Virus record (IMG/VR): IMGVR_UViG_3300043642_000037
Location: 32,001 to 96,000 of that record
DNA length: 64,000 bases
Reading direction: 5' to 3' (one strand)
From: a virus
Lineage: Duplodnaviria > Caudoviricetes
A program made the translations under genes and the position numbers. Below the pieces are notes generated by a model. The model was not told the origin of the DNA. It saw nothing but the letters and a program-made list of their open reading frames with translations, and ran no database searches. This document shows, piece by piece, positions 13,850 to 58,187 of this stretch (the first letter of the stretch is position 1; every line of letters begins with the position of its first letter).

Positions 13850-14071
13850 ATGGCCAAGCACCCCGTGCGATCTCCTGTGGGCGGCAGCGTGTGGGCGCAC
13901 TCGGTCGGGGTCGGCCAGCAGGTGGTCGAGGGCGCCACGCTGATGATCGTCGAGGTGATGAAGACGGAGTTTCCCGTCGAGTCGCCCGTCGCGGGCGTCG
14001 TGACGTGGCTGGCCGCGTGCGGCGACGCGATAGACGCCGACGCGCTGGTCGCTATCGTAGATTTTTTTTGA
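13850..14071 (+). CDS. Stand-alone biotin/lipoyl carrier domain protein
   Basis: VRSPVGGSVW...VEVMKTEFPVESPVAGVV, matching the E-x-M-K biotinylation loop. Confidence 0.85.
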   Translation: MAKHPVRSPVGGSVWAHSVGVGQQVVEGATLMIVEVMKTEFPVESPVAGVVTWLAACGDAIDADALVAIVDFF

Positions 14072-16586
14072 AGAGAGATGACAGACGTCCCAGTAGACCC
14101 GGTGTTTGTTCACCTAGAATTGGTGCGCCTAATAGTTGTTTCGCGAAGGCGGGCGCATCGTGATGTAACGCGTTAACTGTCGGCGCGTGCTGCAATACGT
14201 GGGGAGGTAGGTCACCTCTTAGGACGTTAGGGCCTTTGGTCAGTTGAAATTTGCCTGGCGAAAGGAGTGGTTTGTAGGTCGAAAGCGGCTCAGCGGGTAT
14301 TGCTTTCGCATCAATGACTTTTTCGTAAATTGGAGAATTTCCAACCTCCGATTTTCCGGAGTTTTTGGGTTGGTGAATTTTTTGGCCTCTTGGGTCCTCC
14401 GATATATGAGGAGTCCATGAGCCTTGATTTTCATCAGGGATTTTAGCTAATTCATATGCGTTTAAACGTGCGGCGCTGGTTCCAGACTGACTTAGGCTTT
14501 GCGCGTATCCGCTAGATACGTTCGGGATCCCTGAAAACCACCTCGGGCCCGTTCCTTCGTGGCTGGTTGGATTTGCGCCCCGCCAAGCAATCCGATCAGG
14601 ATGCACCCCTGGTTGGGTTGATGCGACATTAGGATCATCTATGAATGGCACATGTACGACGTCTGTAGCTTTGTGTCTTCCTGAGGATTGAAGTTTGTCG
14701 ATTTCATCTGTGGGCCGTCCGACTGACCCTTTCAATGAATTCGGGATTTCTTTGTTTTGCCTTCTAAGCGCTCTGGTTTTTTCTCTGCCATCTTCGTAGG
14801 TCGGTGAAAAATCGTGCTGATATTTTTCGTTGGCCAGTTCTTGTGTAGGTGAAGTGTTGAAGTCGAGTAAATCAGGTGTCAACGCTTCGGAGGCGGGTCG
14901 CCAAAGTGGTCCTAGTGAATTGTTGGATGACGGCGTAATGGCGCGTCTTGCACTATTCGTGTTGCGCAGTGCTTGTTCAATTCTCGTCGTTTGGCGTTTC
15001 CCGATCGCAGTTTTTTCGTTCGCCATCTTCGAGGCTCTCGACATCGCGCGAGCCGCCATGACGCCCAGCGGGACCGAGGCGCCGAGCGCGAGGGTTTGGC
15101 CCGGCGACAGCGGATTCTTCAGGTACGGCGTCCAGCCTCCGCCGGTCGTGCGTCGGCCGGAGTGCAGGGTCAGCAGCTTCTCGTGACGGGACAGGCCTGA
15201 CGGGTCGATGCCGGCCGCCTGCAACCGTTGGTCAAGCTGGTTCCCCCAGCCCTCACGCGGTCGGAGCTTCATGACCGCCCCGTTGCCCATGTCGACCTCG
15301 TCCCCGTCAAGCGTGTCGAATCCGAGGTCCGCAACCCCGAGTGACTTGTCGAGGTCCATCATGTCCCCGATGTAGGCCGCGTTTCCTCGATGATTGAGCT
15401 GCTCGCGGAGCTTGCTCGGGTCGCGGCGCAGGTGAATCTGCGCGTCGAACAGCTCGGGGTCGTGCGTGCGGTTGAGGAGGTAGTGCTCCATGATCTCGCC
15501 GGCTCTCGGGGCGTGCGGCATCTTCTCGACGTTTCGTCCGAGCCCGATGGTCGACTTCCACGCGTTGCCGGGCTCCCAGTCGAGCCCGTAGTGAGTCATT
15601 CCGGTCTGGTGCGCGAGTGCGCGAGCGAGCGTCGTCTTGCCTGAGCCGGGCGGCGCGTCGATGCCGATCCGAAGCGTGCGAGGGTCCAGCCCGCGGCTCG
15701 TCAGGTGCTGGTGTATCGCCTGCGCCTGCTGAAGCACCTGGTCGGGGATCGCGCCGCTGGTGTCCTGGTCCTGCGTGGAGCCCTTCCCCGCCATCAGGTT
15801 GTGGAGGTTCGACTGAATGCCTGGCTTGGAGGCCAACATGCCTGCGCCAAGCGCGAGAGGGATGCCGACGCCAACCGCGGTCGGTAGTGCGGCGCCTGTC
15901 TTGCTCATCTGGAATTTCGCTCGAGGAAATTGTCGCGGTCCTGCTGCTGCTGCTGCGGCTTGTCCAGGAGGTACGCCGCGGGGCAATACCGCGGTGGGCA
16001 CGTCCCGCGGGGTCATTGGTTGTTGTGGCGCTATTGCTGCTTGACCTTTTGGCAGTACCGCTGTTGCTTGTCCTTGTTGCGGCGCTATTGCTGCTTGACC
16101 TTTTGGCAATACCGCTGTTGCTTGCCCTTGTTGTGGGCGGATGGCGGTGGGCTGCGCTTGTGCGTGTGCTCTTTCCTGTGCTACCCAATCGCCCCGGTCT
16201 GACCGCTGCCCGAACGCTGCGTCGATCCGCTGCTGCGCCGTGGGCTGCCCCGCAGGCGTGTTGTGCACCAATCTCCGTTGTTCCAGGACCCTGTCAAAGC
16301 GCGCTGGTGCCTTATCGGACATTGCTGACGTGGTGTGCTCCTCCCCCGCCCAGGGGAGACGATGAGCAAGATTCTGCATCGCCGACACTTGCGGAGTTTG
16401 AGGGAGCACGCCGGGTTCGCGCACGTAGGAGGACAGCCCCGGCTTGAAGATGGCCTGAGGCTGCGCTGCGATGTGGTCGAACGCGTTCGGGGCGAACGTG
16501 CGGCCTGCGCGCGTGCCTGCGTTCTGAAGGGCGCGCGCGTAGGTGCTGCCCGAGATCGCGAACTTCATCCACGGCTGCCAGGGCAC
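14052..16586 (-). CDS. Modular 844-aa putative internal virion polyprotein (repeats, P-loop kinase, ART-like domain)
   Basis: GIDAPPGSGKTT Walker A; C-terminal AWRG...RWFSG...GYA; modules begin at MSKTG and KMANEKTA. Confidence 0.7.
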   Translation of the reverse strand: MPWQPWMKFAISGSTYARALQNAGTRAGRTFAPNAFDHIAAQPQAIFKPGLSSYVREPGVLPQTPQVSAMQNLAHRLPWAGEEHTTSAMSDKAPARFDRVLEQRRLVHNTPAGQPTAQQRIDAAFGQRSDRGDWVAQERAHAQAQPTAIRPQQGQATAVLPKGQAAIAPQQGQATAVLPKGQAAIAPQQPMTPRDVPTAVLPRGVPPGQAAAAAAGPRQFPRAKFQMSKTGAALPTAVGVGIPLALGAGMLASKPGIQSNLHNLMAGKGSTQDQDTSGAIPDQVLQQAQAIHQHLTSRGLDPRTLRIGIDAPPGSGKTTLARALAHQTGMTHYGLDWEPGNAWKSTIGLGRNVEKMPHAPRAGEIMEHYLLNRTHDPELFDAQIHLRRDPSKLREQLNHRGNAAYIGDMMDLDKSLGVADLGFDTLDGDEVDMGNGAVMKLRPREGWGNQLDQRLQAAGIDPSGLSRHEKLLTLHSGRRTTGGGWTPYLKNPLSPGQTLALGASVPLGVMAARAMSRASKMANEKTAIGKRQTTRIEQALRNTNSARRAITPSSNNSLGPLWRPASEALTPDLLDFNTSPTQELANEKYQHDFSPTYEDGREKTRALRRQNKEIPNSLKGSVGRPTDEIDKLQSSGRHKATDVVHVPFIDDPNVASTQPGVHPDRIAWRGANPTSHEGTGPRWFSGIPNVSSGYAQSLSQSGTSAARLNAYELAKIPDENQGSWTPHISEDPRGQKIHQPKNSGKSEVGNSPIYEKVIDAKAIPAEPLSTYKPLLSPGKFQLTKGPNVLRGDLPPHVLQHAPTVNALHHDAPAFAKQLLGAPILGEQTPGLLGRLSSLFKKNLR
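16015..16135 (-). repeat. 54-bp coding tandem repeat (about 2 copies)
   Basis: Encodes QQGQATAVLPKGQAAIAP twice. Confidence 0.85.
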
Positions 16587-31372: not shown

Positions 31373-31645
31373 TCATCCGATGACCTCCTGGCCGTACGTG
31401 CCGTCGGCGCGCCCGGGCGCGAGGTGATCGACGTCGGAGACGTTCCACAGCCAGTCGGGCATGTTGGGATCCTGCCCGCCGGGGGCGGATGCCGGCGATC
31501 TCGAGGGGTACTGGAGTCGCTCGGTGCCGTGGCTCTGCTCGTCGCCGCGCGGCGCGACGCCGGGGCTCGCGCCCATGGCGCCGGACAGCTTGAAGCGCGC
31601 CAGCGCGCTCGCGACGCCGGCGCTCCGTGCCGCCCTCAGGCTCAT
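31373..31645 (-). CDS. Small protein with the shared helix motif
   Basis: MSLRAARSAGVASALARFKLS; ATGA overlap. Confidence 0.7.
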   Translation of the reverse strand: MSLRAARSAGVASALARFKLSGAMGASPGVAPRGDEQSHGTERLQYPSRSPASAPGGQDPNMPDWLWNVSDVDHLAPGRADGTYGQEVIG

Positions 31646-39005: not shown

Positions 39006-39007
39006 GC

Positions 39008-39607: not shown

Positions 39608-39659
39608 GTGCGGTCTCCGTTGCAACGAGATGATAGGGCGGTTGTCGAAAATCCCCAAG

Positions 39660-43066: not shown

Positions 43067-43069
43067 GCG

Positions 43070-43342
43070 TCACGCGTCCCGCGCGGGCGACACCGAGTCG
43101 CGGATCCGACGCTCGCCCTCCGCGGACAGGCGCTCGCCGCTCGCAGCTGCCAGCGACAGGATGCCGCCGGCGACGAGCCTCGCGGTCTTCCTTCGGACGA
43201 ACGATCGCGCGCCGATGAGACCCGCCACCTTTCCCGGGTGAAGCTCGCCCACGCCCGCGATCTCGCCGACGATACGATGCAGGCCCGCGGCCTTGACGAT
43301 CGCGACTGTTTCGGGCCTCAGGAGGTTGTCGAGAGTGGCCAT
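43070..43342 (-). CDS. Small head-module protein
   Basis: KAA, KVA, KTA. Confidence 0.6.
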   Translation of the reverse strand: MATLDNLLRPETVAIVKAAGLHRIVGEIAGVGELHPGKVAGLIGARSFVRRKTARLVAGGILSLAAASGERLSAEGERRIRDSVSPARDA

Positions 43343-43344
43343 CG

Positions 43345-44181: not shown

Positions 44182-45038
44182 AGGGACCTCACGTGTGTCG
44201 CGGCGTCGCGGACTCGCGCGGCCTGACGGGCCACCTTGACGAGCGCGCAGAACTCGCGAAGCGGTGGGGTGTCGTCGACGACGTGGCGGTCTCTGAGCTG
44301 GGCCGTCTTCTCGAGAGCCTCGCGCCCGCGCAGAGGGAGCCCGCGCTCGCGTCGCATGAGGTTGATGACGGCGAGCCCGTGTGAGTCGCCCTCGACGGAC
44401 ATCGCGTCCTTCTCGAAGTCTTCGAAGCGAGGAGCCCCGTGCGCGAGCTTGAACAGCCGCGCCAGACGGCCGTAGCCGTCGTCGAATGCCATCTCGGCTT
44501 CGACCAGCTGGTCGTCGAACACCGTCGCCAGCTTGGCCAGGCGATGACCCTTGACCATCGCCTCCTTCTGCGTGTCCTTGTCGCGGGCCCTGGCCGGCGG
44601 CTTGTCGCCGGCTTTCGGCTCGCCGGAGGGTCCGCTGCGCCCCAGGATCGCCTCGCCCTCCCCGACGGGCTGCTTGCGCAGCGAACCCATCTCATCCGGA
44701 AGCGGCGCGTCGTCCCCGTCCGGCGGGGACGGCGCCGACGGCTCGGCGCCGTCGAGCTGCGGGCCCGAGTCGATGATGGACTTGATGACGGATCGGGTCT
44801 CGAGCGGCTCGAACTCGTGGGTCATGTCCCGCTGACCGTCGGCCTTGCGCGCCTCCATCATGCGCAGGAACGCCATCGTGTTGGCCGCCTGAACGAGGCG
44901 CTCGATCTGGTCGGCGTTGAGCTGGCCGTGAACGGCTTCCTCGACGGCCGCGTCGGCCATCTTGACCCCGCGCGCGAGGAATCCGTCGACAACGCGGCCA
45001 GCCATCTCGTCGTAGTCTTGTTCCCTGAGAGCCCGCAT
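44172..45038 (-). CDS. Head-module protein
   Basis: LNADQIERLVQAANT; several K-x-A sites. Confidence 0.7.
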   Translation of the reverse strand: MRALREQDYDEMAGRVVDGFLARGVKMADAAVEEAVHGQLNADQIERLVQAANTMAFLRMMEARKADGQRDMTHEFEPLETRSVIKSIIDSGPQLDGAEPSAPSPPDGDDAPLPDEMGSLRKQPVGEGEAILGRSGPSGEPKAGDKPPARARDKDTQKEAMVKGHRLAKLATVFDDQLVEAEMAFDDGYGRLARLFKLAHGAPRFEDFEKDAMSVEGDSHGLAVINLMRRERGLPLRGREALEKTAQLRDRHVVDDTPPLREFCALVKVARQAARVRDAATHVRSLCS

Positions 45039-45706
45039 CAGTGGAGAACCTCCGCCGTCTTGTCGACGAATTCAATCGAGGACGTCATCTCTCGATGTTT
45101 GATTTTGAGCGCGACGCTCTCGGTCATCGGCGCCCGCTTGGCGAGAACGGCGGCCTGCGCGACCGCCATCTGCTGGTGCTTGAGGGCCTCGCGCGCCACG
45201 CCGCTGTCCAGTCCGGCCTCGCGCCCCATCAACGCCTTGAAGTGCCCGTCGACCATGGCCTGCGTCTGGACGACTCCCGGGTCGATGATGACCGGCAGGC
45301 CCGACAGGTACGCGACCGCCTCGACGCCGTACATGACAGCCCAGCGAACGTACTGCGTTGATCCCACGACCGCGTCGGGCGCCTCGCTCGCCTCGCGCAC
45401 CCACTCGACCAGGTCGATGTGGTCCCGGAACACCGCGACGTCGAAGAACAGGTGACGGAAGGCCCTGATGACGTCGAAGGACAGTCGCGTCCGTCGGCTG
45501 ATCTCCTCATCGTTCGAGGTCGCGAGCAGCCACCCGCGCATGCAATCGCACGCCTTGCCCGCGCTCAGCTCGAGAGCCCTGACCACCGACTCGTCGGCTG
45601 GCTGACCCCTGCGGGACAACCACAGCGCCCGCTCGAAAGGATGCTCCGGCTGGTCGCGGGACGCGATCGCGGCAATCGCTCGATGGTCGGGGTTACGGCG
45701 TGGCAT
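45038..45706 (-). CDS. Hypothetical protein
   Basis: MPRRNPDH...FRHLFFDV; overlaps neighbours. Confidence 0.65.
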   Translation of the reverse strand: MPRRNPDHRAIAAIASRDQPEHPFERALWLSRRGQPADESVVRALELSAGKACDCMRGWLLATSNDEEISRRTRLSFDVIRAFRHLFFDVAVFRDHIDLVEWVREASEAPDAVVGSTQYVRWAVMYGVEAVAYLSGLPVIIDPGVVQTQAMVDGHFKALMGREAGLDSGVAREALKHQQMAVAQAAVLAKRAPMTESVALKIKHREMTSSIEFVDKTAEVLH

Positions 45707-48536
45707 AGCCCTCAGGGTCCTTCGCGCCCTGAACGCCACGCGCCAGACGAAGCACGATGTCCCCCAGGCTCTTGAACGTGGAGCCCAAGCTCTGCTCGAG
45801 AGCGTCGAACACCGACTCGCCCACGCGCTCCTTGAGATCCGACTCCTGCATCCACAACGTGAGCTGGACACGCGCGAGATTGTCGACCGCCTTCTCGAGG
45901 TTCGGCAGGTGCTGGCCGACAACCGCGTGAAGCTCCGGCGACTGCACGAGCGTCGCGACGGCGGCGACGTCGAAGATGTCCGGAGGCAGCGCGCTCGCCT
46001 GCTGAAGGAACTGCGGGTTGACCTCCGCGTCCAGCGCGTGCCCGTTGGGGCCGTCGACAGGCATCAAAGCGCCGGGCGCGGGGCCTTGTCCGCCCATCGG
46101 ACCCATGCCGGAAGCGCCCATGCCCTGATCACCCATCGGGTCGCTCATCGGGTCCGCGCCCATGGGCGGCATACCCGGATCTCCACCCATCGAAGCCGGA
46201 TCCATCGGTCCAGCACCCATGCCCGGAGCGCCGCCCATCGGGTCTGCGCCCATGCCTGGAGCGCCGCCCATCGAAGCCGGATCCATCGGTCCGGCACCCA
46301 TGCCTGGAGCACCACCCATCGGATCGCCGCCGGGCGCCCCCGGCATCCCGGGGTTCATCGGCTGGCCCGTGGCGAGGTTCGCCGATGACGGCGGCGCACC
46401 CATCATCTGGGTCTGCGTCGAGGCCGACATCGGTGCTCCACCCGCGATCTCGTGCGAGCGCTGGACAAGCGTGGCGAGCATCTGCTGCTTGTCCTGGAGC
46501 TTCTGCATCTCGGCTTGGATCGCCTGGTCCATCTCCATCGCCGCCAGCTCGACGGGCGACGGAGGGGGTGGGGCCGGAGGCGGACCCATCACGGCCTGTG
46601 CCGCGCCGGCGGCCAGGTCGGGTTCGGGGGCGGGTTCTGCGGAGGCGGGCGGCTTCCGCTTCTTTCCGCCGCCGCGGTCGCCGCTCTTGTCGCCGCCCTT
46701 GTCGCCGCCCTTGTCGTCGTCAGCAGCCAGCTTGTCGACGGCCATCTGCGCGCGCGCGACCTGCTCGGTCGACACGACCCACGCGCGGGCCGAGCCGTCT
46801 CGCGTCGCCTGGTCGAGCAGCATGCCGGCGGCCGCGACCTTGATTCCGTAGTCGGCCGCGACCTTGCGGAGAGCCTGCACGCGACCGACACCGGGACGGC
46901 CGTCGACGGAGAACTGCCGAGCCCCCGCGTCTTTGATCGACACCTTTCGCGCTCCGACCGCGGCGAGCGACGACGACACGCATCGCGCCAGGTCGTGCGC
47001 CGACTGGAACCACGCCCTCTCGTCGAGGCGCTCCCGCAACGGAATCCATATGAAGTCAGGCGGGATGTACACCACGTCCGCGCCCTTCGGCATCACGATT
47101 CCGCCGAGCGGGCTGCGCGGGTCCGTGACCAGCGTTTTTTCCTCGGTGAATCCGCGCACCGCGGTGACCCGCATGCGGCGAACGCCGTCGGCGCCGGTGG
47201 TGACCGACTTGATGTCGAGCGGGATGGTGGCCTGGAACGTCGAGCCCTTCTGGCGCACGAACAGGCCCTTGCCCGCGCGCGGCTGACCGTCGACGTCCTT
47301 GAACAAGCGCTTGTGCAGCGGGCCGGACAGCTCGTCCGCGACCGAGTCGCGACCGACCAGGCGATCCGGCTCGATGTAGTCCCCGTCGCCGAACACGGCC
47401 ACGTACTTCGAGACGTTCCACCGCCTGCGCGTGACGTAGTCGGTCTCGTCGGGCCTGCCCATCGGGTAGACCTTGTTGGCGCTGCGTCCGACGCCGCCGG
47501 GGCGACGCTCGTTGAGCAGGGGGTTGTGGCCCGCGACGGCAGGACGTCGCCCGTACTGCGTTCCCTCCCCGAGGACGTCGATCGGGTCGGAGACAACGAG
47601 CGCCGGACGCTCCTTGCCCGTGGACTCGTAGAGAACGTACACACCCGGCTGGTTCGGCTCGATCCAGCGCTCGTAGGGCTGGACCTGCACGGTCAGGTTG
47701 TGGGACGCGCGGTCGTCGCGAACCGCGTAGCCCTCGCGACGAACCCCGGCGTACGCCTCGCCCGCCTTGTCGCCGAACATGCGATGGAACTCCGACGGGG
47801 TGGTGTCCTTGTCGGCGATCCACAGCGCGCCGCCGAAGCTCTGCTTGGCGGCGACTTTCTCGAGGCCGGGGCGCAAGGCGTGCGACAGCTCCGACATGCC
47901 GTACGCGGCCGCGGCTGCCTTCAGGATGCGAGGATTGTGCGCGAGCACGTGTTGAAAGGCCGACTTGACGCGGTTGGACGCGGACCGCAGAAGAGGCAAA
48001 AGCAACTCGGGCTGCTTGTCGTCGCCCTCCTTGGTCAGGTTACTCGGCGACATGACCTGCTCGAGGTCCAGCATGGCTGACGCGTAGGAGAACCTGCCCG
48101 TGATGGGCGGCACCACGATGTTCCGTATGTCGACGTCCGTGTACAGCGTCTCGGGCGTCTTCACGCCGGTTCCCAGCGACGCCAGCCCGGCCTTGGCTAG
48201 CTCGTCCAGCCACCCCTTGTTGAGGGGGAGGAACATGTTGAGTGCCTTGTGGTACATGATGTCCAGCGGCTTGATCGCGCTGTTGGACATCACGACGGGG
48301 ACGTACAGCGACTGGCCGTGGCGCGAGACTACGAAGGCGCCCACGCCGTAGCCCTTGTCGACGTCGGTCGACAGGACCTTGAAGGTCACCACGTCCGGGA
48401 CCAGGTCCGGGACCCTCTGCGTGAGCAGCTGGTACGCCATCTCGCTCAGTCCGGACTCGAACAAGCTGGTGGCCTGGTCGGGACTTTGGCCCGTTCCTCC
48501 TTGGAGTTGCTGCATGCGCGGGCTGAGCGGGGGCAT
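45693..48536 (-). CDS. Large head-module protein with an M/G/P-rich repeat region
   Basis: 947 aa; GAPGMGAGPMDPASMG repeats (~46130-46360); several K-x-A sites. Confidence 0.75.
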   Translation of the reverse strand: MPPLSPRMQQLQGGTGQSPDQATSLFESGLSEMAYQLLTQRVPDLVPDVVTFKVLSTDVDKGYGVGAFVVSRHGQSLYVPVVMSNSAIKPLDIMYHKALNMFLPLNKGWLDELAKAGLASLGTGVKTPETLYTDVDIRNIVVPPITGRFSYASAMLDLEQVMSPSNLTKEGDDKQPELLLPLLRSASNRVKSAFQHVLAHNPRILKAAAAAYGMSELSHALRPGLEKVAAKQSFGGALWIADKDTTPSEFHRMFGDKAGEAYAGVRREGYAVRDDRASHNLTVQVQPYERWIEPNQPGVYVLYESTGKERPALVVSDPIDVLGEGTQYGRRPAVAGHNPLLNERRPGGVGRSANKVYPMGRPDETDYVTRRRWNVSKYVAVFGDGDYIEPDRLVGRDSVADELSGPLHKRLFKDVDGQPRAGKGLFVRQKGSTFQATIPLDIKSVTTGADGVRRMRVTAVRGFTEEKTLVTDPRSPLGGIVMPKGADVVYIPPDFIWIPLRERLDERAWFQSAHDLARCVSSSLAAVGARKVSIKDAGARQFSVDGRPGVGRVQALRKVAADYGIKVAAAGMLLDQATRDGSARAWVVSTEQVARAQMAVDKLAADDDKGGDKGGDKSGDRGGGKKRKPPASAEPAPEPDLAAGAAQAVMGPPPAPPPPSPVELAAMEMDQAIQAEMQKLQDKQQMLATLVQRSHEIAGGAPMSASTQTQMMGAPPSSANLATGQPMNPGMPGAPGGDPMGGAPGMGAGPMDPASMGGAPGMGADPMGGAPGMGAGPMDPASMGGDPGMPPMGADPMSDPMGDQGMGASGMGPMGGQGPAPGALMPVDGPNGHALDAEVNPQFLQQASALPPDIFDVAAVATLVQSPELHAVVGQHLPNLEKAVDNLARVQLTLWMQESDLKERVGESVFDALEQSLGSTFKSLGDIVLRLARGVQGAKDPEGYATP

Positions 48537-48546
48537 TGGTTCCTTG

Positions 48547-48747
48547 CTACGTGGCGGGAAAGCTCACAACTTTTGGGATGTTCGCATCGGGAATGGCTCT
48601 TGCCTTCTCGACCTCGACGACCTTCTTGGCGTGCTCATGTCCCAGCGTGTGCGTTGCGATCTCGGCGCTCGGCCTCCGGTGATGGTCGTGTGCGAGATGA
48701 TGTTCGATCTGCCGGAGGCCCTCGTGACGGACGTGTCGCGGCAGCAC
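48547..48747 (-). CDS. Small His-rich protein
   Basis: 66-aa ORF filling the gap between two genes. Confidence 0.5.
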   Translation of the reverse strand: MLPRHVRHEGLRQIEHHLAHDHHRRPSAEIATHTLGHEHAKKVVEVEKARAIPDANIPKVVSFPAT

Positions 48748-48750
48748 GGA

Positions 48751-50088
48751 CTACCTCGTGCCGGCTCGCATGGCGTGCTCGATGCGCCGGACGTGGTCGC
48801 GCATCGCCGCCTCCTTGCCCTTCTCGTCGTCGCCGTCCTTGTCGTCCTTGTCGTCTTTCTTCGCGAAGGGGTTCTCACCCTTCTTGTCGTCCTTGTCGTC
48901 GTCCTTCTTCTCGCCCTTGTCCTCCTCCTTGCGCATGAAGAACGGCAGACCGCTCTCCTCGGCGGCCTTGCTCTGGTTGTTCTTGCGGCCGTCGTAGGCG
49001 CCCGGGCGCGAGTGGGTCGCGTCGGAGCTGTGCTGCGCGTACCCGTCGGACCGCGAGCCCGGCGGAACCGCGGCGGGCGCCGCCGCCGCCGTGCGCTCCT
49101 GGACGGAGGTCTGCAGGCCCGTGAGGTAGGCGGCCTTCTCGGCGACCTGCATTCCCATGCACGCGCGGACGTGAGCCACCTTCTCGTCCTCGGACAGGGA
49201 GGCGGGAATGTAGGGGAAGCACTCGGCCGCCGTCTTCTTGAAGACGGCGATCCACGGGTCCTCGGCCGCGGCCTTCGACGAGTGCTGAGTGACCGAGTTC
49301 GATCCGCTCGGCGACTCGCTGGGACCGTTGGGCTGCGGGGTCTCGCGACCGATGATCGCCGGGCCCTTGGCCTGGCTCATCAGTTCGCCGAGTCCGCCCT
49401 GCATGGGGAGCACGGCGTATCCGGATGGACGCTGCGACATGTCCATCTTGCCCTCCGCGGTGGTCGGCTCCTTGTTGCCCTTGTCCCCACCGAGGATGGT
49501 GGTGCCCTCCGCGATCTTCCGCATCATGTCGGCGAGCGACGCGGTCCTGGACTGCTCGGTCACCGAGTTCTCTCCCGAGGGAGACTCGTGCGGGCGGTTC
49601 GGCTGGTCCTGCTCCTTGCCGACCGCCCCGGCGCGGGTGTCGACCTCGGTCTTACCGAGGCTGTTCTCGGCGTAGCCGGGCGGGCGCTGCGCCGCGTCCA
49701 TCTTGGTCTCGCCCTGACCCGACTCGGCCTGCGTGTTGCCCTTGTCGCCGCCCTCGATCGTGCTGCCCTCCGCGCGCTTCTCGGCTTCCTCCATCAGGTG
49801 CGTGGCGTTGGCCTGCGCGATCTTCTCGAGGTCGGCCTGGTTCTCGACGCGGTTGAACGAGGCGGCCTTGAAGCCGGGCCGCTGCTGGCGGATCCTGTTC
49901 GACGCGTCGATGACCGTGTTCGCGATCTTCGCCGTCGCGTCCCCGGGGCTCGCGGGATCGAAGTCCAGCTGGTCCGCGACGTAGTCCGCGACCTTGATCG
50001 CGTCGCCGCCGTCCTCGAACTGGGCGCGCCCGCCCTGGATCACTGCCAGCGCGACACCGCGGGCGTATGCTTGCTTGAACATGGTCAT
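48751..50088 (-). CDS. Scaffold/inner-core-like protein with an internal duplication
   Basis: AGGAG SD; CCTATCAT motif; more than ten K-x-A sites; two GGDKGN...ESPSG.NSVT repeats. Confidence 0.75.
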   Translation of the reverse strand: MTMFKQAYARGVALAVIQGGRAQFEDGGDAIKVADYVADQLDFDPASPGDATAKIANTVIDASNRIRQQRPGFKAASFNRVENQADLEKIAQANATHLMEEAEKRAEGSTIEGGDKGNTQAESGQGETKMDAAQRPPGYAENSLGKTEVDTRAGAVGKEQDQPNRPHESPSGENSVTEQSRTASLADMMRKIAEGTTILGGDKGNKEPTTAEGKMDMSQRPSGYAVLPMQGGLGELMSQAKGPAIIGRETPQPNGPSESPSGSNSVTQHSSKAAAEDPWIAVFKKTAAECFPYIPASLSEDEKVAHVRACMGMQVAEKAAYLTGLQTSVQERTAAAAPAAVPPGSRSDGYAQHSSDATHSRPGAYDGRKNNQSKAAEESGLPFFMRKEEDKGEKKDDDKDDKKGENPFAKKDDKDDKDGDDEKGKEAAMRDHVRRIEHAMRAGTR

Positions 50089-50558: not shown

Positions 50559-51130
50559 GGAAGGTCCTGTCTGGGAGTGGTCCCCAACACGTGGTCCAGC
50601 CCGCGCCCGACGACGTGACCGAGGCCCCTGCCGACCCCGAGACCGATTGGGGTTCCAATCATGCCGCCGGCGGTGCCGCCGTACATCATGCCGGCAAGGC
50701 CGCCCACGCCGCCGAGGAGACGCGACATTCGGCCCTCCGAGGCGTCCTGGCGCATCATGCTCGGCAGCGCCGCGGCGGTCAGCAGGGTGCCCGCGCGTCC
50801 GGCGGCCTGCATGAATGGCCGGCCGGGCATCGAGGGCCACAGGACGTTGCGCCAGTGGAGAGAGCCGCCGGGTGCGAACGTCCTGGCGCCCTCGACGAAG
50901 GCGTTGGGTCCCTGCCCGAAGGCGACGAGCTTGGCGGTGCCGGCCGCGGAGTCGACGAGGCCCTGGCCCAGGTAGGCCAGCTTGGCGGCGCGAACCCCCT
51001 CGGTGAGGGCCTGCACGATTGTCGACAGCTCCGTCGAAGGTTTTGCATGTTGGTGCGGCCGATGTCCGTGTCTTGCGAAGTGTTCGCGCATGGTGTCGAC
51101 GGAGTACCCTGGGTCGTTCGGACCGAACAC
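50555..51130 (-). CDS. Glycine-zipper protein with a weak helix motif
   Basis: ALTEGVRAAKLAY; GGVGGLAGMMYGGTAGGMIG. Confidence 0.65.
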   Translation of the reverse strand: MFGPNDPGYSVDTMREHFARHGHRPHQHAKPSTELSTIVQALTEGVRAAKLAYLGQGLVDSAAGTAKLVAFGQGPNAFVEGARTFAPGGSLHWRNVLWPSMPGRPFMQAAGRAGTLLTAAALPSMMRQDASEGRMSRLLGGVGGLAGMMYGGTAGGMIGTPIGLGVGRGLGHVVGRGLDHVLGTTPRQDLP

Positions 51131-52908
51131 TAGTACCTTCCTTCCGGGCCCTGCCCGAACTCGGTTCCGGCGGCGTACGCCGGAACGGGCGAGTAGCCGT
51201 GAACGTCGGCGTGGTCGCCGCGGTGGGCGCCGGCCAGCAGGCTCTCCTTCAGGTACCGGTGACCAAGACGCGCCATCCAGTCTGGGTTCAGCAACGGGGT
51301 TCTCGACGCGGGCCGCATGAGCGGGGCCGCCATCGGAGCGTTGTCCGCCACGTTCACCTCGTGAACCCCGCGACGCGCGAGCACGCTTGCGACGTCGGGC
51401 GTCACCCGGGTTCCGGCGGTGAAGTGGAACGCGTCCTGCGCGAGCGTCTCGCCCGCTGCCTCGGCCAGGCCGACACGCCTGTGGGACGCGGCGAGCGCGG
51501 CGCGGAACCTGTTGTAGTCGATCACGTCGCCCTTCATGAAGGCGTCGTCCGGCCCCGGATCGATGATCTGGACGTGGGACAGCACGCTTCTCGCGAGCGT
51601 CTCGAGGTGGCGCTTGTCGACGTCCGCGCCGGCGCGCCGGTACACGTCGTGAAGAGCGTCGACCAGGTAGCGCCTGCCCTCGCCGAGCCCCTTGTGACGG
51701 ACGATCTCGTCGGGACGAGGCACGCCGTCCGACAGCGTGTCGCCGGCGAACAACGGCTGGCCTACGGCCACCGTCACCCGCTGGTCCGGCGGGACGTAGT
51801 GGCGCGACCCCTCGACGGTGACGTAGGCGCCTCCCTGTGGGGCGGGCTCGACGATCCCGACCTTGCCGTCCCTGTCCGCGAGCACGGCCTTGTGGAGGAA
51901 TGAGGTCGGTATCTCGAGGAGCTGGCGGACCCCCTTTATCCCCTCGAGCTGCTTCTTGTCGGTCGCGGCCGCAGCGACGCGGCCGCCGTGCTTGGCGTTC
52001 AGGCTGAACTGGGTCAACGGCTCACTGAGCGCCTGCGCCGCGCGCATGCCGACGTTGGTGCCCAGCACGTGCGGGTGTCCCGAGGGGTCGAGACCCTGGC
52101 AGCGCTGGCAGATGCCGTGCGGCGCCTCGCAGGTCATCGGCGATCGGACTGTGACGGGGTCCCCCTTCGCCGCGATTGACGATGCGAGCCCAGGAGTCAC
52201 CAGACGACCGTCGGTCAGGTAGCGATCGATCAGGTGCGGATCGGCCGCGGCCATCTCGATCCCGTTCCGCGTGCCGCAGTCGAGGGTCGTGATGAGCTTG
52301 TCGCCCATATTGTTGACGAGGATCTTCGCCAGGTCCCCCGGCTCGACGACCGAGATGTTCGACCTCACCGCGTTGACTCGAGCCTCGCCGCCCGCGACCC
52401 AGGCGTCGGCGGGCGTCAGGCCCTCGGAGAAGCTCTTCTTGATCAACCAGGGCACCGTTCGGTCCCTGGAGTCCCTGGCCAGGACCGGAGAGCCGACCGC
52501 GCGCATGAGCTGGGCCGCGTTGCCGCGTCCGCCCGACCTCACCATCTCCCCCATCGCCCCCTTGTCGCGCTTGGCGAGCGAGAGCATCGCGTCCTGCGCC
52601 GCGAACAAGGCCTTCTCCCTGTCCGCGTGCGTCCTCGCCGCGTGGAAGGCGTCAACGTGCGGCGCCAGCATGGCGTCCCGCTCCGGGTGCGGCGCGATGT
52701 CGTCGAGCCCGACCGAGATGCCCTCCAGCGTCGCGACCTCGTCGCCGAGCCGCTTGAGCCTGGTGACGACCTCGGGATACGCGGAGGGATCGGACTTCGC
52801 CAGGCGAACCAGGCTGTCGTTGAGCACGCCCTTGGTCAGGGCCTGGTCGTCGTGTCGCCAGCCCTTCGGCAGCACCGCGTCGACGAGATGTTGTCCCAGC
52901 GTTCGCAT
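51130..52908 (-). CDS. Phage RNA polymerase, beta' C-terminal part
   Basis: SGGRG, SFSEGL, DCGT, VRSPMTC..GICQRC, AAQALSEPLTQFSLNAKHGG (bridge helix, Zn site, trigger loop). Confidence 0.9.
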   Translation of the reverse strand: MRTLGQHLVDAVLPKGWRHDDQALTKGVLNDSLVRLAKSDPSAYPEVVTRLKRLGDEVATLEGISVGLDDIAPHPERDAMLAPHVDAFHAARTHADREKALFAAQDAMLSLAKRDKGAMGEMVRSGGRGNAAQLMRAVGSPVLARDSRDRTVPWLIKKSFSEGLTPADAWVAGGEARVNAVRSNISVVEPGDLAKILVNNMGDKLITTLDCGTRNGIEMAAADPHLIDRYLTDGRLVTPGLASSIAAKGDPVTVRSPMTCEAPHGICQRCQGLDPSGHPHVLGTNVGMRAAQALSEPLTQFSLNAKHGGRVAAAATDKKQLEGIKGVRQLLEIPTSFLHKAVLADRDGKVGIVEPAPQGGAYVTVEGSRHYVPPDQRVTVAVGQPLFAGDTLSDGVPRPDEIVRHKGLGEGRRYLVDALHDVYRRAGADVDKRHLETLARSVLSHVQIIDPGPDDAFMKGDVIDYNRFRAALAASHRRVGLAEAAGETLAQDAFHFTAGTRVTPDVASVLARRGVHEVNVADNAPMAAPLMRPASRTPLLNPDWMARLGHRYLKESLLAGAHRGDHADVHGYSPVPAYAAGTEFGQGPEGRY

Positions 52909-52909: not shown

Positions 52910-53323
52910 TCACATCGACGGCGGGTAGCCCGGGGGCGATCCATAGCCCTGCTGGGCCATCATGGCTCGACGTCGCGCCTGCTCATCCTGCTCCTGGTTG
53001 CGTCGGTGCCACATGTACAACCCGCCGGCGGCGAGCGTCGGCGCGAGCTTGCCCGCGTTTCCGATGGCCTGCTGTCGGTGAGTCGCGCGCGCGAGGTCCA
53101 TGCTCTGCGGTGGCACGGCCCCTGTGATCAGGGTGGGGTTCATCTGTCCGCCCAGGCCGCCTCGCAGGTTGCGAAACAGGTCCTTGGCCGCGCCGGCCTG
53201 ACCCGCGCCGAACGTCTTCAGCTTGTCGAGGATGCCGGCCGGCGCGACGTCGGCCATCTTGAACCTCGCCAGGGCGTGTCGGACGCCCGCATGCGCAAAC
53301 GGGGTGACGTGTGTCGTCGACAT
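52910..53323 (-). CDS. Small protein with the shared helix motif
   Basis: FAHAGVRHALARFKMA; LAPTLAAGGLYMW. Confidence 0.7.
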   Translation of the reverse strand: MSTTHVTPFAHAGVRHALARFKMADVAPAGILDKLKTFGAGQAGAAKDLFRNLRGGLGGQMNPTLITGAVPPQSMDLARATHRQQAIGNAGKLAPTLAAGGLYMWHRRNQEQDEQARRRAMMAQQGYGSPPGYPPSM

Positions 53324-53790
53324 CAGACGCCTCCAAACGCGGATGGGCCGACGCCCGATCGGCCGCCGGCGTCGCCCGCGGCCGTGCTGCTGGGCGGACC
53401 CCAGTTGGTCGATCGATCGAGCGGGTTCTTGGCCGCGACGGGCGCCCCCGGCTGCGGCGGCTCGTCGAGCGCCTGGAGCATTCGAGCCAGGTCCTCCGAC
53501 GATCGTCGATCGCCGTACTCGTTCGCCTTCTTGGCGTGGCCCTTCGCCGCCACCGTCTTGCCCGCCGCGTCGAACCCGTGAAAGGTCCGATCCGGGATCT
53601 TGAGCCGAAGCTCCTCCCCCGCGCGCTTGAGGCCGAAGCGCTCCAGCGCGGCGATCGCGCCGGACGCTCTCGCGTGCTTGACGTGCTCGGGCAACGTCAC
53701 GTCCTTGGGCGTGTGGTCCGCGAACTCCCGTGCCACCTCCGGGTGGTTGGCCCAGAGGTACTTTCGTTGCGCGTCGGATCGGAAGGGCAC
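53323..53790 (-). CDS. Small protein with an MPFRS.AQR N-terminal domain and the helix motif
   Basis: MPFRSDAQRKYLWANHPEVA...KHARASGAIAALERFGLKRA; CCTATACT at 53800-53807. Confidence 0.7.
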   Translation of the reverse strand: MPFRSDAQRKYLWANHPEVAREFADHTPKDVTLPEHVKHARASGAIAALERFGLKRAGEELRLKIPDRTFHGFDAAGKTVAAKGHAKKANEYGDRRSSEDLARMLQALDEPPQPGAPVAAKNPLDRSTNWGPPSSTAAGDAGGRSGVGPSAFGGV

Positions 53791-53810: not shown

Positions 53811-56800
53811 TCACTCGCCGATGTGGATATGGTCGTTCAGGGCAACCTCTCCGCGGTGATACGCGGCGCGGGCGTCCTGCAGGGACGCGAACCTCTTCGC
53901 CGTTCGACCGGAGGCCGGCTGGGTGGCCCTGTGGAGACCGAGCACGGCCTCCATGTCGGGCGCGACGTTGAGCATGCCCGGCCTTCGATCCGCGAAGATC
54001 TGGTGCGAGAGCGTCATCCGCTTGACGTCCTCCACGCCCGCGGGTGTCACCGGGGCGTGGATCTGCATCGCGTCGCCATCGTAATCCGCGTTGGTCCCTC
54101 GCTCAGCGAAGGGGTTGAGTGTGATCGTCTTGCCTTCGGTCATCCTTGGGTAAGCGCCGATGATGTTGTGGCGGGTCAACGAGGGCGCACGGTTGACCAT
54201 GACCGGGCGCTCTCGTGTCTCGTTGATCAACTCGTCTTTGGCGATCGGCGCTTTGTCCTCGACCAGCTTTTGCGCGTCGATAGCCGAGTAACCCCGCCGT
54301 ACGAGCCGTCCAATTACGAACTTGGAATACATGCCCCAGAGCATGTCGGTGGGTACGCCGATCTCATCCATGGATAGCGTGGGGTCTGGCGCGATGGTCG
54401 CGCGTCCGCTGACGTCCTGCTGGCGCTTCATGAGCTTCGATTGGAAGAACCCTGAGCCAGGCCGGCTTCCGGTGATCGTTGCGATGTATCCCTTGGCACC
54501 TCGGCGCAGCACCCCGGGGCTAACGGGGTCACCGACGCCGAACAACGCGCTGACAGCGTCGAACAGGTGTCTGCGCGGCGCGTGAAGCTCGGATTCCGGT
54601 AGGACCTTCGTCGAGTCCTTGAGCTGGTCGTTTGCCAGGAACGCGTCGCGGTACAGCAGGTTCGCGTCGCCGACCTGGAGCCTGCCGTCCTTGAGGGGAA
54701 GGATCGGTCGAATGATCGGCGGCGTGACAGGGACCTTGCTGATCACGTAGGCATCCGCGGGCTTCAATCCGTGCGCCTGGAGGGCCGCCAGGTACTTCGC
54801 CTGCTTGACCGCGTCGTCGAGCGCCGCGCCGCGCAGGTGCCTGGATCGATCGCGCAGCTCCTCGAGACGGGACGGCACGTCGATGCGGCCCAGCTCGCTG
54901 CGAAACCACTCTCCGCCGCGGCCGGTTCTCTCCGCGAACTCCTTCTGGGTCAGGCCGAGGAGCCGGCGCACGGGCTCCTCGAACACGGGGTTGACGATCG
55001 ACTCGGACAGCTCGACGTGCGACCACTTGGTGCCGGCCATTCCGCCGGTCCTCGCGGGGTCGAACATCCCGCCGGTCTCCGGGCGCAGGTCCTTGGCTCG
55101 AATCATCTTGCTCGGGTCGGGCAGCTCGCCGGAGGACATCTTCAGGATGTCCGCGTCGGTGAGCGGCCCTAGGGCCAGCCTCGAGCCCGCCTTGGAGATC
55201 TTGACGCCGGCGCCCGAGAGCATCGCGTGCAGCTTGTCGTACGCGAACGGCGTGCGCGGGGCGGGCGCGGGGGTGCCGAGCTGCACCGAGCGCCAGAACT
55301 CGTCGTTGCGCTGGCTCTTGATCGCCGCGGACTCGCGGAGCACGGCCCTCGCGTTGTGCGCGACGAGACCGTCGAACTCCATCTTGCCGATGCCCTTGGC
55401 GCCGTCGTCGCCGCCTCGCGCGGGCTGCTGGTTGTAGTCGTAGCGCTCGGCGCCGTGCGCCGCCCAGTTGCTGTCGGTCGTCTTGAAGAGCTTGAGGAAG
55501 TACGACTTGCCGACGAACACGCCCGGCACGCTCTTGCCCGTCATCGGGTCGACCACCGTCTCCTTGTCCGACAGGCCGTTGCTCTTGAGCAGGCCCTTGG
55601 CGTATGCGACGGCGTCCCGCGCGGCGAACTGCGGGACGAGAATGGGCTCGCCCCGGTGGTCGGCGACCTTGCCGAGCGACGCCTCGACCAGCTGCGCGGG
55701 GTTGATGCGCGTGATGATGCCGGCGCTGGTGAGGATGACGTCGACCGGGCGTCCCTTCTCGTCATGAATCATTTGTGCATCTGGGATTATTTTGGCGACT
55801 ACGCCTTTTGCGCCAAACCTGTTCGAGATCTTGTCGCCGACCTGCAGGGTCTCCTGCGTCTTGACCGTGGCGCTGTGGCGCTCGCCGGTCTTCGAGACGT
55901 CCGTCACGACTCCGGGGTGGTCGTGGGTCCACGTCTCGACGATTTCGGCGTAGGGACGAACGAGCGACTTGGAGAGCTTCCCCAGGAGCGCCGCGTCGCC
56001 CGTCGCCGTCTCGGGCCTCACGCCGATGATGATCGGGTCGCCCTTCTGCAGGACGGTGCCAGGCCGGGCGACGCCGCTCTCGTCGAGCGCGTCGTACTGC
56101 CGGGCGGAGTAGCGCCCGCCGAAGTACGCCCGATGCTTCTCCCTGCTGGTCTCGACGTCGCCCGCCTTGCTGAGCACGTGATGGAACATGTGCTCGGACG
56201 TGAGCTTGTCCGCCGCGCCTTGGCTGACCACGATCCCGTCGTTGGTGTTCAGGCCTCGGTACGGCATGTACGCGACGCGCAGGTTCGTCCCCAGCGCCAG
56301 CACACCGTCCCTGGTGAAGTTGGACTCGGCGAGCGGCTGTCCCTCGCGCACCAGGTCCCCCTCCTTCACCGTCAGCTTGTTGTTGAGGTAGGTCTTGGCC
56401 GCGAGCGGGAAGTCGTGATCGTAGTGCAGTCGAAGGGGGCCGTCAGCGGCGTGCTTCTCGCCGCCCGGAACGAAGTGAATGTAGTCGGCGTCGATCTTGT
56501 CGATGCGGCCGGCCGACGGCGCGGTCGGCACGATGAGTCGAACCATCTCGCGCTCGACCGACATTCCAGGATTCCAGGACTCGACCTGCACCAGAGGCGC
56601 CTCGCGATGCGTCAGAGGGAGCGCCTGGCCCTGGTGCTTGGACGCCATCAGGGCGCGGTTTCCCTGCATGCCGTTGAGGAGGGGAAGGAGGTTGGTCGTC
56701 GCGCCGTACATGTCCGACGCGTGCCGCACCTGGTGCGTCACCTCGGACGACGCGACGCGCTGCACGGATCCGTCCTTCATCACGTCGACGATTCGTCCCG

Positions 56801-58187
56801 CGCCGAGGTCGCCCCCGGGGAACGCGACCACGGCCCTCGCCATGTCCGCGGCCTTGAGGTACTCGTCCTTACCCGTCCGGACGTTTCGCACCGGCGCGTA
56901 CAGGTTGCCGTGATCGTCTCGTCTCGTGCCCACGCCGACGCGCAGGTCCACGCCGACCTTGAAGGACTCGGGCACGCGCGTGGGATCGATGATGCCGAGA
57001 TGCGTGGGATGGACGTCCCGCGCCTCGAGGGGAATGGCGCGCTCGGACGCGATCGCACCCTCGCCCAGCAGGGTGACGCGCGACGCCTCGTCGATAAGCT
57101 CCATCGGGTTTATCTGCATCGGGACCGCCGACAACGAGCTTGTCGTCAGGAACCCGGTGACGGCCCGCGTGAGAGGCGCGGCAGGCAGGGCGTCCTTGAT
57201 CGAGCCGCGGCTGGCGTCCAGCTTCCAGCCCAGCTTGTTGCGCATGGCCCGGGCGTTCAGCTGCAGGCGCTCCTTGACGAAGTCGTCCACCGAGTGGAAC
57301 GTCTTGAACGCGAGGCTGTCGCGGTCGTCCACGTCCGCGGCCTTGCGATGAATCTCGAGGATCTTGTTCGACGCGGCGAGCATCGCCTGTCCCGACGCCT
57401 TGTCGAACGGCGCGCCGAGCGTCACGCGGTTGACCTCCGGGTCCATCGACGTCGCGTCGAGGTACTCGCGAATGGCTCCGACGCGGGCCTCGGGCGTCGC
57501 GTGGTTCCGCTTGGCCGGGTGGATCAGGGCCTCGTAGAGACGCCCGACGTGGGCGTCAGGCGATCGAAAGGCGTCGCGATTGACGGCCGCGACCTGCGAT
57601 CCCCAGCTTCGAACGATGTCCGGATGCGGGACGTCGAGGGCGCGAAGGACCGGGTAGAGCGCGACGCGGGCGGTCGTGTGCCCCGGCTGCATGTACAGCA
57701 GGCCCTTCTCGGGCTCCATCATGACCTTGAAGTTCGCGCCCTTCGACAGGTTGAAGGCGGCCTCCAGCTCCTCGTTGCCCCGTCGCCTGACGTAGACGCC
57801 CGGCTTGGTCCGGAGCTGGTTGGACACCGAGTACTCGGTGCCGTCGAGAATGAACGTGTGGCGCGGTGTGAAGTAGGGAAGGTGGAGCAGCGTGAATCCC
57901 TGCGCGCGACTGGTCACCGCGCCCTGGGCGTCGCGCACGGTCAGGTCGCCGCGGACGCGCTCGGACAGCGTCTTTCCCTCGAGGATGGCCACCTTCTGCT
58001 CGCGCGACGAGAACTCGCGCGGCTCGACCCTGGCGTCGGCCAGCTCGACCGTCCACTTGCCCGCCTTCATGGGGAAGGCCCTGCCGAGCCCCTGAATGGC
58101 CGCCTGGCGGATCTTCTCCCGGCGCGTGGCGCTGTCCTCGAGGACCGGCCTTAGAACCGGCTGCGTTTTGGTAGAAGCATCCGTCAT
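53811..58187 (-). CDS. Phage RNA polymerase, beta fused to the beta' N-terminal (catalytic) part
   Basis: RDVHPTHLG, NRALMASKHQGQA, GDKISNRFGAKGVV, GKMEF; then DVSGRATI, NRAPSL, NADYDGD. Confidence 0.93.
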   Translation of the reverse strand: MTDASTKTQPVLRPVLEDSATRREKIRQAAIQGLGRAFPMKAGKWTVELADARVEPREFSSREQKVAILEGKTLSERVRGDLTVRDAQGAVTSRAQGFTLLHLPYFTPRHTFILDGTEYSVSNQLRTKPGVYVRRRGNEELEAAFNLSKGANFKVMMEPEKGLLYMQPGHTTARVALYPVLRALDVPHPDIVRSWGSQVAAVNRDAFRSPDAHVGRLYEALIHPAKRNHATPEARVGAIREYLDATSMDPEVNRVTLGAPFDKASGQAMLAASNKILEIHRKAADVDDRDSLAFKTFHSVDDFVKERLQLNARAMRNKLGWKLDASRGSIKDALPAAPLTRAVTGFLTTSSLSAVPMQINPMELIDEASRVTLLGEGAIASERAIPLEARDVHPTHLGIIDPTRVPESFKVGVDLRVGVGTRRDDHGNLYAPVRNVRTGKDEYLKAADMARAVVAFPGGDLGAGRIVDVMKDGSVQRVASSEVTHQVRHASDMYGATTNLLPLLNGMQGNRALMASKHQGQALPLTHREAPLVQVESWNPGMSVEREMVRLIVPTAPSAGRIDKIDADYIHFVPGGEKHAADGPLRLHYDHDFPLAAKTYLNNKLTVKEGDLVREGQPLAESNFTRDGVLALGTNLRVAYMPYRGLNTNDGIVVSQGAADKLTSEHMFHHVLSKAGDVETSREKHRAYFGGRYSARQYDALDESGVARPGTVLQKGDPIIIGVRPETATGDAALLGKLSKSLVRPYAEIVETWTHDHPGVVTDVSKTGERHSATVKTQETLQVGDKISNRFGAKGVVAKIIPDAQMIHDEKGRPVDVILTSAGIITRINPAQLVEASLGKVADHRGEPILVPQFAARDAVAYAKGLLKSNGLSDKETVVDPMTGKSVPGVFVGKSYFLKLFKTTDSNWAAHGAERYDYNQQPARGGDDGAKGIGKMEFDGLVAHNARAVLRESAAIKSQRNDEFWRSVQLGTPAPAPRTPFAYDKLHAMLSGAGVKISKAGSRLALGPLTDADILKMSSGELPDPSKMIRAKDLRPETGGMFDPARTGGMAGTKWSHVELSESIVNPVFEEPVRRLLGLTQKEFAERTGRGGEWFRSELGRIDVPSRLEELRDRSRHLRGAALDDAVKQAKYLAALQAHGLKPADAYVISKVPVTPPIIRPILPLKDGRLQVGDANLLYRDAFLANDQLKDSTKVLPESELHAPRRHLFDAVSALFGVGDPVSPGVLRRGAKGYIATITGSRPGSGFFQSKLMKRQQDVSGRATIAPDPTLSMDEIGVPTDMLWGMYSKFVIGRLVRRGYSAIDAQKLVEDKAPIAKDELINETRERPVMVNRAPSLTRHNIIGAYPRMTEGKTITLNPFAERGTNADYDGDAMQIHAPVTPAGVEDVKRMTLSHQIFADRRPGMLNVAPDMEAVLGLHRATQPASGRTAKRFASLQDARAAYHRGEVALNDHIHIGE

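Follow-up and report, generated by a model that had tools for sequence, protein, structure and literature searches.

The DNA considered here belongs to the IMG/VR virus record IMGVR_UViG_3300043642_000037 (Duplodnaviria; Caudoviricetes), which is 156,126 bp long, has a G+C content of 67% and is about 84% complete by CheckV. The window is the 64,000-nucleotide stretch from base 32001 to base 96000 of that record, and positions below are those of the window. Pfam matches and orthology to Salmonella phage Arash and Vibrio phage D69 define a virion module in it, a minus-strand block from about 16.6 to 60.4 kb. Because the high G+C content yields many spurious open reading frames (ORFs), genes were called with a codon-usage model trained on long ORFs with a high G+C content at third codon positions (GC3), and one intein-bearing ORF of low GC3 was added by hand. 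Here, we describe the excess of a tripeptide, K-x-A (lysine, any residue, alanine), in the head-core proteins of this module, and argue that it is probably the recognition motif of the phage's own prohead protease. The features that bear on the argument are given one per line, with K-x-A counts as observed versus expected after the residues of each protein had been shuffled, a procedure that preserves its lysine and alanine content.

36586-37530, minus strand: major capsid protein (match to Arash gp226)
37432-37440, minus strand: K-E-A, residues 31-33 of the major capsid protein (TKEA at residues 30-33); K-x-A stands in this column in 66 of 66 relatives
38065-38412, minus strand: small head-core protein, 115 residues; 5 K-x-A versus 1.0, one of them at residues 5-7
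38409-38561, minus strand: ORF of 50 residues, gene call uncertain; 2 K-x-A (LRKIAS and LRKLAG), 2 relatives matched
39008-39658, minus strand: scaffold-like, Ala-rich protein, 216 residues (199 from an alternative start at 39607); 9 K-x-A versus 2.1
39660-42527, minus strand: predicted prohead protease precursor, 955 residues; N-extein 1-175, intein 176-540, C-extein 541-955
40908-42002, minus strand: intein with LAGLIDADG homing-endonuclease domain (Pfam Intein_splicing, Hint and LAGLIDADG_3)
42524-43342, minus strand: two small head-module proteins, 180 and 90 residues; 3 K-x-A versus 1.0 and 3 versus 0.5
44172-45038, minus strand: head-core protein, 288 residues, orthologue of Arash gp220 and D69 0268 by BLAST; 7 K-x-A versus 1.9
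45038-48536, minus strand: two head-module proteins, 222 residues (Arash gp219 orthologue; 2 K-x-A versus 0.9) and 947 residues (Arash gp218 orthologue; 8 versus 4.8)
48751-50088, minus strand: head-core protein, 445 residues; 13 K-x-A versus 4.8, six of them within the first 106 residues

The head core, taken as the eleven minus-strand proteins encoded between 38065 and 50088, contains 65 K-x-A where 23.3 are expected (z 9.3). This is the strongest signal in a scan of all 400 residue pairs at spacings of 1, 2 and 3, that is, among 1200 patterns of the form a-x(0-2)-b. The initial annotation, made by eye, had claimed that K-x-A is dense in head proteins, and the excess survives the correction for lysine and alanine composition; its counts for the products of 39008 (nine), 38065 (five) and 48751 (more than ten, in fact 13) were exact. 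The neighbouring spacings are flat, with 20 KA versus 23 and 27 KxxA versus 23, which rules out Ala/Lys-rich helices or low complexity as the source of the signal. Moreover, the DNA pattern AAR-NNN-GCN occurs 61, 1 and 2 times in the three frames, and this restriction to the coding frame places the signal at the protein level. Lysines of the head core fall within K-x-A in 39% of cases, versus 13% elsewhere. When the proteins of the genome were ranked without any grouping, six of the seven most enriched were encoded by contiguous head-module genes. Counts are at chance in the tail block (29 versus 22), in the RNA polymerase/portal block (19 versus 18) and in the remaining genome (136 versus 118), which bears out the earlier impression that the motif belongs to head proteins. 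The interval first assigned to it, 14052-58187, was nevertheless far too wide, since the real feature lies at about 36586-50088.

Can such a scan recover a cleavage motif? Applied to the core and scaffold proteins of phage T4 (gp67, gp68, gp21 and gp22), it returned I-x-E (15 versus 5.9) and L-x-E (16 versus 7.0) as the top pairs, with no such signal in the T4 portal and tube proteins or in gp23. The method thus recovers the experimentally known motif of the T4 protease gp21, and the K-x-A signal reported here is the stronger of the two.

The same signal is found in relatives at considerable distance. The capsid protein and protease of Arash and D69 are about 37-41% identical to those of the window, and the G+C content of these two phages is 45% versus 67%. 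Syntenic proteins are enriched in Arash (gp220, 10 versus 3.0; gp223, 8 versus 2.9; gp225, 7 versus 1.9) and in D69 (0268, 11 versus 3.9; 0271, 10 versus 3.0; 0273, 6 versus 1.5), and the tail, portal and polymerase proteins of both show no excess. The N-extein of the protease has more than 460 metagenomic homologues. Among IMG/VR relatives, 79 loci had flanks and 60 of these had enough head-core sequence for the scan; K-x-A was the top a-x-b pair in 55 of the 60, at protease identities down to 32%, and the pooled count of 3360 versus 1297 is one of related sequences and not of independent events. Relatives that carry the signal range from 45 to 71% in G+C content. Broken down by orthologue group, the excess is limited to the scaffold-like and core proteins and the protease. 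It is absent from the orthologue groups of the capsid protein, the 37579 product and the RNA polymerase beta' chain, and in the beta' family none of 13 conserved Lys columns is K-x-A. Relatives of three tail-side ORFs (28546, 30809 and 31373) show an apparent excess, in small families with few or no conserved columns.

Within the head core, which is Ala-rich (up to 22% Ala), the sites are conserved one by one. The nine K-x-A of the 39008 product lie 11-35 residues apart, and the protease is predicted to reduce the protein to small peptides; across 54 relatives all nine conserved Lys columns are K-x-A, the site at residue 33 being present in 54 of 54, and the pooled orthologues have 656 versus 182. 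Four of the five conserved Lys columns are K-x-A both in the 38065 family (pooled 328 versus 82) and in the 44172 family (391 versus 108). Orthologues of the 180- and 90-residue proteins at 42524-43342 give 48 versus 13 and 54 versus 13. The excess is moderate in the families of the 222-residue protein (68 versus 33) and of the 947-residue protein (568 versus 288), the latter with conserved K-x-A at residues 191, 227, 535 and 558.

The 48751 product (pooled 414 versus 174), with seven conserved K-x-A columns, is built in part from two tandem repeats of about 87 residues (residues 104-190 and 191-273; repeat alignment score 184), each of which opens with K-x-A-EG. The repeats are rich in Gly, Pro, Ser and Gln; they start K-(R/I)-A-EG-(S/T)-TI-x-GGDKGN and end SPSG-x-NSVT. 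The C-terminus of the protein consists of an acidic Asp/Lys-rich stretch, then K-E-A, then a helix of 20 residues. A tblastn search of a phage collection with this product gave no match.

The motif is exacting at both of its fixed positions. Ratios of observed to expected counts across the clade were 0.88 for K-x-S, 0.56 for K-x-G and 0.98 for R-x-A, so that Lys and Ala are both strict, and the three patterns, originally admitted as variants, were dropped. A hydrophobic-x-Lys core without Ala was likewise rejected, [LMI]-x-K followed by a residue other than Ala at +2 giving 0.97. By comparison, [LMI]-x-K-x-A is enriched 6.1-fold and K-x-A-[SA] 5.9-fold. Information extends from K-2 to K+4 (Leu, Glu, Lys, Thr/Val/Leu/Ile, Ala, Ala/Ser, Ala/Glu), and the extended motif is [L/M/I]-[E]-K-[T/V/L/I/E]-A-[A/S]. 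If this is a cleavage site, which bond would be cut? The residue preferences lean somewhat towards a cut after Ala (P3 Lys, P1 Ala, P1' Ser/Ala), because the footprint would then run from P5 to P2', as is usual for such enzymes, with fixed residues at P3 and P1, the arrangement also seen in T4 (L/I-x-E), SPN3US and phiKZ (A/S/G-x-E) and the herpesviruses (V/L/I-x-A|S). A cut after Lys would place most of the information on the prime side, which is less usual.

The gene at 39660-42527 is interrupted by an intein, whose boundaries read CFLAGA...VHN|CKIKY (C176...HN540|C541). It has Hint blocks, an N-terminal Cys and a C-terminal His-Asn followed by Cys, and there are inteinless alleles at the same point. 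Indeed, inteinless homologues of about 590 residues (range about 575-615), 98% identical in the N-extein, read SMGC(R/K)IKYD uninterrupted. The intein is inserted where Ser-Met-Gly meets Cys, immediately behind the serine predicted to be catalytic. The intein is polymorphic in the family: among the matches listed, about 15 of 120 homologues carry one at S-M-G|C and are 940-968 residues long. The spliced protein would comprise a domain at about residues 39-243 and a long C-terminal tail of about 340 residues studded with K-x-A. In agreement with the initial annotation, the protease itself carries the motif, with 11 copies in the full-length product and 10 in the spliced exteins, where 4.0 are expected.

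The protein matches PHROG 18299 with E 9.6e-6, as do 39 of 39 inteinless relatives (best E 3.5e-15); the name of that family, 'head maturation protease', is an annotation and not a function established by assay. For the fold, we used an AlphaFold2 (AF2) model of the protease domain alone of an inteinless relative (57% identical), built on a 39-sequence alignment, which reached a predicted local distance difference test (pLDDT) score of 78 and a predicted template-modelling (pTM) score of 0.74. Prediction of a full 590-residue inteinless homologue with 23 sequences gave the protease domain a pLDDT of 30-45. The best Foldseek matches of the model were herpesvirus proteases, at a weak E of 0.016. 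VIA-align placed T4 gp21 (5jbl) first (Z 10.3, root-mean-square deviation 2.9, 129 residues aligned) and the varicella-zoster virus (VZV) protease second (Z 9.2), and the next matches, unrelated beta-barrels, scored Z 7.2 or below. The domain as modelled has the herpesvirus-protease fold.

Alignment with T4 gp21 by hhalign (probability 7%) superposed NRN in the two proteins and put T4 His85 on H120 and T4 Ser140 on S172, the two T4 residues being those that we take to be catalytic. In 39 diverse relatives, H121 and S172 are invariant and H120 is nearly so. The predicted catalytic His and Ser therefore occur in that order and at conserved positions. The triad of the gp21 family is His-Ser-Asp (PMC5694885), and either D180 or D224, both invariant, may supply the third residue. 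Right behind the predicted catalytic Ser-Met-Gly there is an invariant or near-invariant set, Cys-x2-Cys...Cys-x-His (C182, C185, C196 and H198), which looks like a zinc-ribbon-like insert and has weak Pfam zinc-ribbon matches; the Pfam search of the exteins returned intein and zinc-ribbon-like fragments only. We know of no such insert in T4 gp21 or assemblin.

The confidently modelled residues, 39-243, lie exactly between two near-invariant sites, K36-x-A38|S39 and K240-K241-V-A243, as expected if the enzyme frees its own catalytic domain. The earlier suggestion that K-x-A sites fall at module junctions holds for these domain borders and for the tandem repeats of the 48751 product.

The major capsid protein shows the complementary pattern. 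A K-x-A at the place of the TKEA noticed near its N-terminus is kept in all 66 relatives, as listed above, and outside this site K-x-A is depleted in the relatives (36 versus 98.7 expected). One kept site combined with avoidance elsewhere is the pattern that selection by a protease predicts, and K-E-A is predicted to be the maturation cleavage site at which a 33-residue N-terminal propeptide would be removed.

RNA polymerase genes and the portal gene adjoin the head core, assigned by Pfam matches or by orthology to Arash and D69.

51130-52908, minus strand: RNA polymerase beta'-C chain
53811-58187, minus strand: RNA polymerase beta::beta'-N fusion
58557-60353, minus strand: portal protein

For the orphan phage Arash, the published virion proteome lists RNA polymerase among the most abundant proteins (PMC10585845). 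A K-x-A in the polymerase had been proposed as a site, and EKHA is indeed present at residue 578. It is absent from Arash and D69, however, and the polymerase as a whole has 9 K-x-A versus 8.4, the polymerase chains being at chance in all three phages; on this evidence the polymerase was rejected as a substrate. The beta fusions of Arash (gp206) and D69 (0261) start M-P-K-(S/K)-A-S, with K-x-A-S at residues 3-6; the window orthologue lacks this, and it may be due to chance.

Other sites were seen further afield. Three small minus-strand proteins (31373-31645, 52910-53323 and 53323-53790) have in common an N-terminal segment G-x3-A-L-x-R-F...K-x-(A/S), reading ALARFKLS, ALARFKMA and ALERFGLKRA, and relatives of the 31373-31645 protein read ALARFKLA; the segment could be a propeptide for capsid targeting, with a protease site at its end. 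Genome-wide, K-x-A is most enriched in a 332-residue protein whose gene lies outside the window and at a distance from the head module (113236-114234 of the record, minus strand; 81236-82234 if the window numbering is continued): 11 of its 12 Lys belong to K-x-A, where 1.9 copies are expected. Much like the product of D69 gene 0296 (10 versus 2.3), this protein is probably another substrate of the protease.

What does the motif do? The explanation that we favour, and consider probable, is that K-x-A is the recognition motif of the gp21/assemblin-fold prohead serine protease encoded, intein and all, at 39660-42527. This reading as a cleavage code draws together the enrichment, its conservation throughout the clade, the avoidance in the capsid protein, the gp21/assemblin fold of the model, the K-x-A at the domain borders and the T4 control. 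From these observations we infer that the motif is cut, that this enzyme cuts it, and at which bond. The original proposal that the product of 39660-42527 cuts K-x-A in the core has thus gained strong, though indirect, support from enrichment, conservation, fold and the T4 control, and it keeps the standing of a prediction; the release of cargo that the same annotation added is a conjecture.

Several considerations weigh against this explanation. No cleavage product, mature N-terminus or protease assay is known for any clade member, and none is reported in the Arash virion proteome study (PMC10585845). That proteome was obtained with trypsin, which cuts at the Lys of the motif, and its 'coverage' column is unusable for judging N-terminal removal, because 100% is given for proteins with 2 unique peptides. 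The packaged RNA polymerase carries its nine K-x-A at chance level, so that the motif alone cannot suffice for cutting. The kinship of the pooled sequences reduces the force of the clade-wide totals. Pfam S77 (PF03420) gave no match to the window protein or to 39 relatives at E up to 1, and none in a six-frame search of the genome; the protease is accordingly not a sequence-level member of that family, its relation to it being one of fold and catalytic dyad. Searches of PDB sequences with phmmer and with a profile likewise found nothing for the protease, and with the hhalign probability noted above, its family placement rests on a predicted fold and a weak alignment. The sequence itself is compatible with either register of the cut, behind Ala or behind Lys.

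A motif that is bound rather than cut could also recur in core proteins. If K-x-A were a docking or assembly signal, recognized by the inner surface of the capsid, by the portal or by the protease, it would recruit core proteins to the prohead; its place at the extreme N-terminus (residues 5-7) of two families, and at the end of the A-L-x-R-F helix common to the three small proteins, like a targeting tag, would suit this role, and enrichment statistics alone cannot separate binding from cutting. For docking, however, 9-13 copies per protein would be more than is needed, sites on either side of the protease domain would be unexpected, and there would be no selection against the motif in the mature capsid protein; moreover, in T4 a signature of the same statistical kind marks genuine cleavage sites. 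We therefore consider docking improbable. A shade less probable is cleavage by another enzyme of the host or the phage. While the specificity of the 39660-42527 product is a prediction, and a second protease gene could be missing from a record of this completeness, Pfam reveals no S78, S77 or ClpP-type protease elsewhere in the record, and the K-x-A at the protease's own domain borders is near-invariant. The motif also accompanies the protease gene in phages with hosts as unlike as Salmonella, Vibrio and soil bacteria of high G+C content; such a spread speaks against a host enzyme.

The strict requirement for Lys, for which Arg is no substitute, would fit lysine chemistry, such as isopeptide cross-linking, acylation or methylation of the head-core proteins. 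Yet Ala two residues on is equally strict, the informative positions span seven residues in the manner of a protease subsite footprint, and the sites at the protease domain borders and the capsid N-terminus fit processing; no enzyme for such a modification was seen among the head-module genes, and we regard covalent modification as very unlikely. An artefact deserves hardly any credence. The abundance of Ala in the head-core proteins and the initial choice of the group by eye might raise the suspicion of Lys/Ala-rich helical or low-complexity composition, or of post hoc grouping, but the excess persists under within-protein shuffling with KA and KxxA flat, the unbiased genome-wide ranking recovers the same contiguous genes, and relatives of widely differing G+C content show the signal again.

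If K-x-A is indeed the motif of the prohead protease, head maturation might proceed as follows. The intein would splice out of the precursor and the spliced enzyme would be built into the prohead. There it would trim itself at K36-x-A38 and K241-V-A243, which border the catalytic domain, take about 33 N-terminal residues off the major capsid protein at K-E-A, and break down the scaffold-like and core proteins, whose genes lie between those for the capsid protein and the RNA polymerase, to short pieces or to individual modules. The position of the intein beside the catalytic serine raises the possibility of extra control over when the protease becomes active.

A broader proposition, to which we give a little less than an even chance, is that a very large and mostly uncultured clade, with hundreds of metagenomic members besides Arash and the D69-type phages of Vibrio, has shifted gp21/assemblin specificity to Lys-x-Ala|Ser/Ala, the motif serving as a 'barcode' for the processed head proteome. 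Propeptides, scaffold fragments and modules freed from repeat proteins would then be predictable directly from sequence. Because the motif is strict, sequence predicts which head-core proteins are substrates, where propeptides end and which proteins avoid cutting; this would be useful in these poorly annotated phages, most of whose genes are 'hypothetical', and would provide a defined pair of protease and site. To our knowledge, few prohead proteases have had their specificity mapped, the characterized gp21-type phage enzymes all cut after Glu, and a P1-Ala rule is otherwise known only from the herpesviruses. A Lys-x-Ala rule, if true, would add a new specificity to the gp21 lineage, one reminiscent of the herpesvirus enzymes in its P1 Ala. 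No K-X-A motif of proheads turned up in literature searches, which were incomplete in coverage and are thus no proof of novelty. Cultured phages, among them Arash on Salmonella, allow a direct test of the prediction.

An ORF of 844 residues (14052-16586, minus strand), covered by the interval first assigned to the motif, has a weak AAA/P-loop match and lies in a stretch of lower G+C content (61.5% versus 67%), with no tie to the K-x-A signal.

How does the system compare with those already known? T4 gp21 (MEROPS S77; 5jbl), which processes gp22, gp67, gp68, gp23 and internal proteins, is the best structural match (Z 10.3), with His85 and Ser140 aligning with H120 and S172. In both phages the protease gene adjoins scaffold and capsid genes, and the motif, fixed at two positions with a spacing of two residues, is abundant in core and scaffold proteins and occurs once at the capsid N-terminus. 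The T4 motif is (L/I)-x-E, whereas K-x-A puts no Glu at P1; the enzyme described here also differs in having no Pfam S77 match and in its zinc-ribbon-like insert, its site-studded tail of about 340 residues and, in this phage, its intein.

The proteases phiKZ gp175 and SPN3US gp245, from giant phages that package a virion RNA polymerase, are gp21-like as well, process many head and internal proteins and remove their own C-terminal part. SPN3US gp245 cuts after A-X-E at P3-P2-P1 and prefers Ser at P1' (PMC10052503), so that a motif set at P3 and P1 with Ser preferred at P1' would be a common property, and both phage groups encode a multisubunit RNA polymerase in or near the head module. Unlike the phages considered here, the giant phages have enzymes that cut after (A/S/G)-x-E; the RNA polymerase of the present group has no K-x-A excess, and its genomes, at 156-200 kb, are smaller and make up a clade of their own, centred on the orphan phage Arash.

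The third system is the herpesvirus assemblin (MEROPS S21), represented by the proteases of VZV, Epstein-Barr virus, human cytomegalovirus, Kaposi's sarcoma-associated herpesvirus and pseudorabies virus, whose release and maturation sites are cleaved at (V/L/I)-x-A|S. The modelled domain has the same fold (VZV, Z 9.2). The third catalytic residue here is probably Asp, as in the phage enzymes, and not the second His of assemblin; Lys at P3 would replace a hydrophobic residue, and the substrates are many separate proteins instead of one scaffold fusion. If the cut is after Ala, however, the two would have in common both P1 Ala with P1' Ser/Ala and self-release at sites that flank the catalytic domain.

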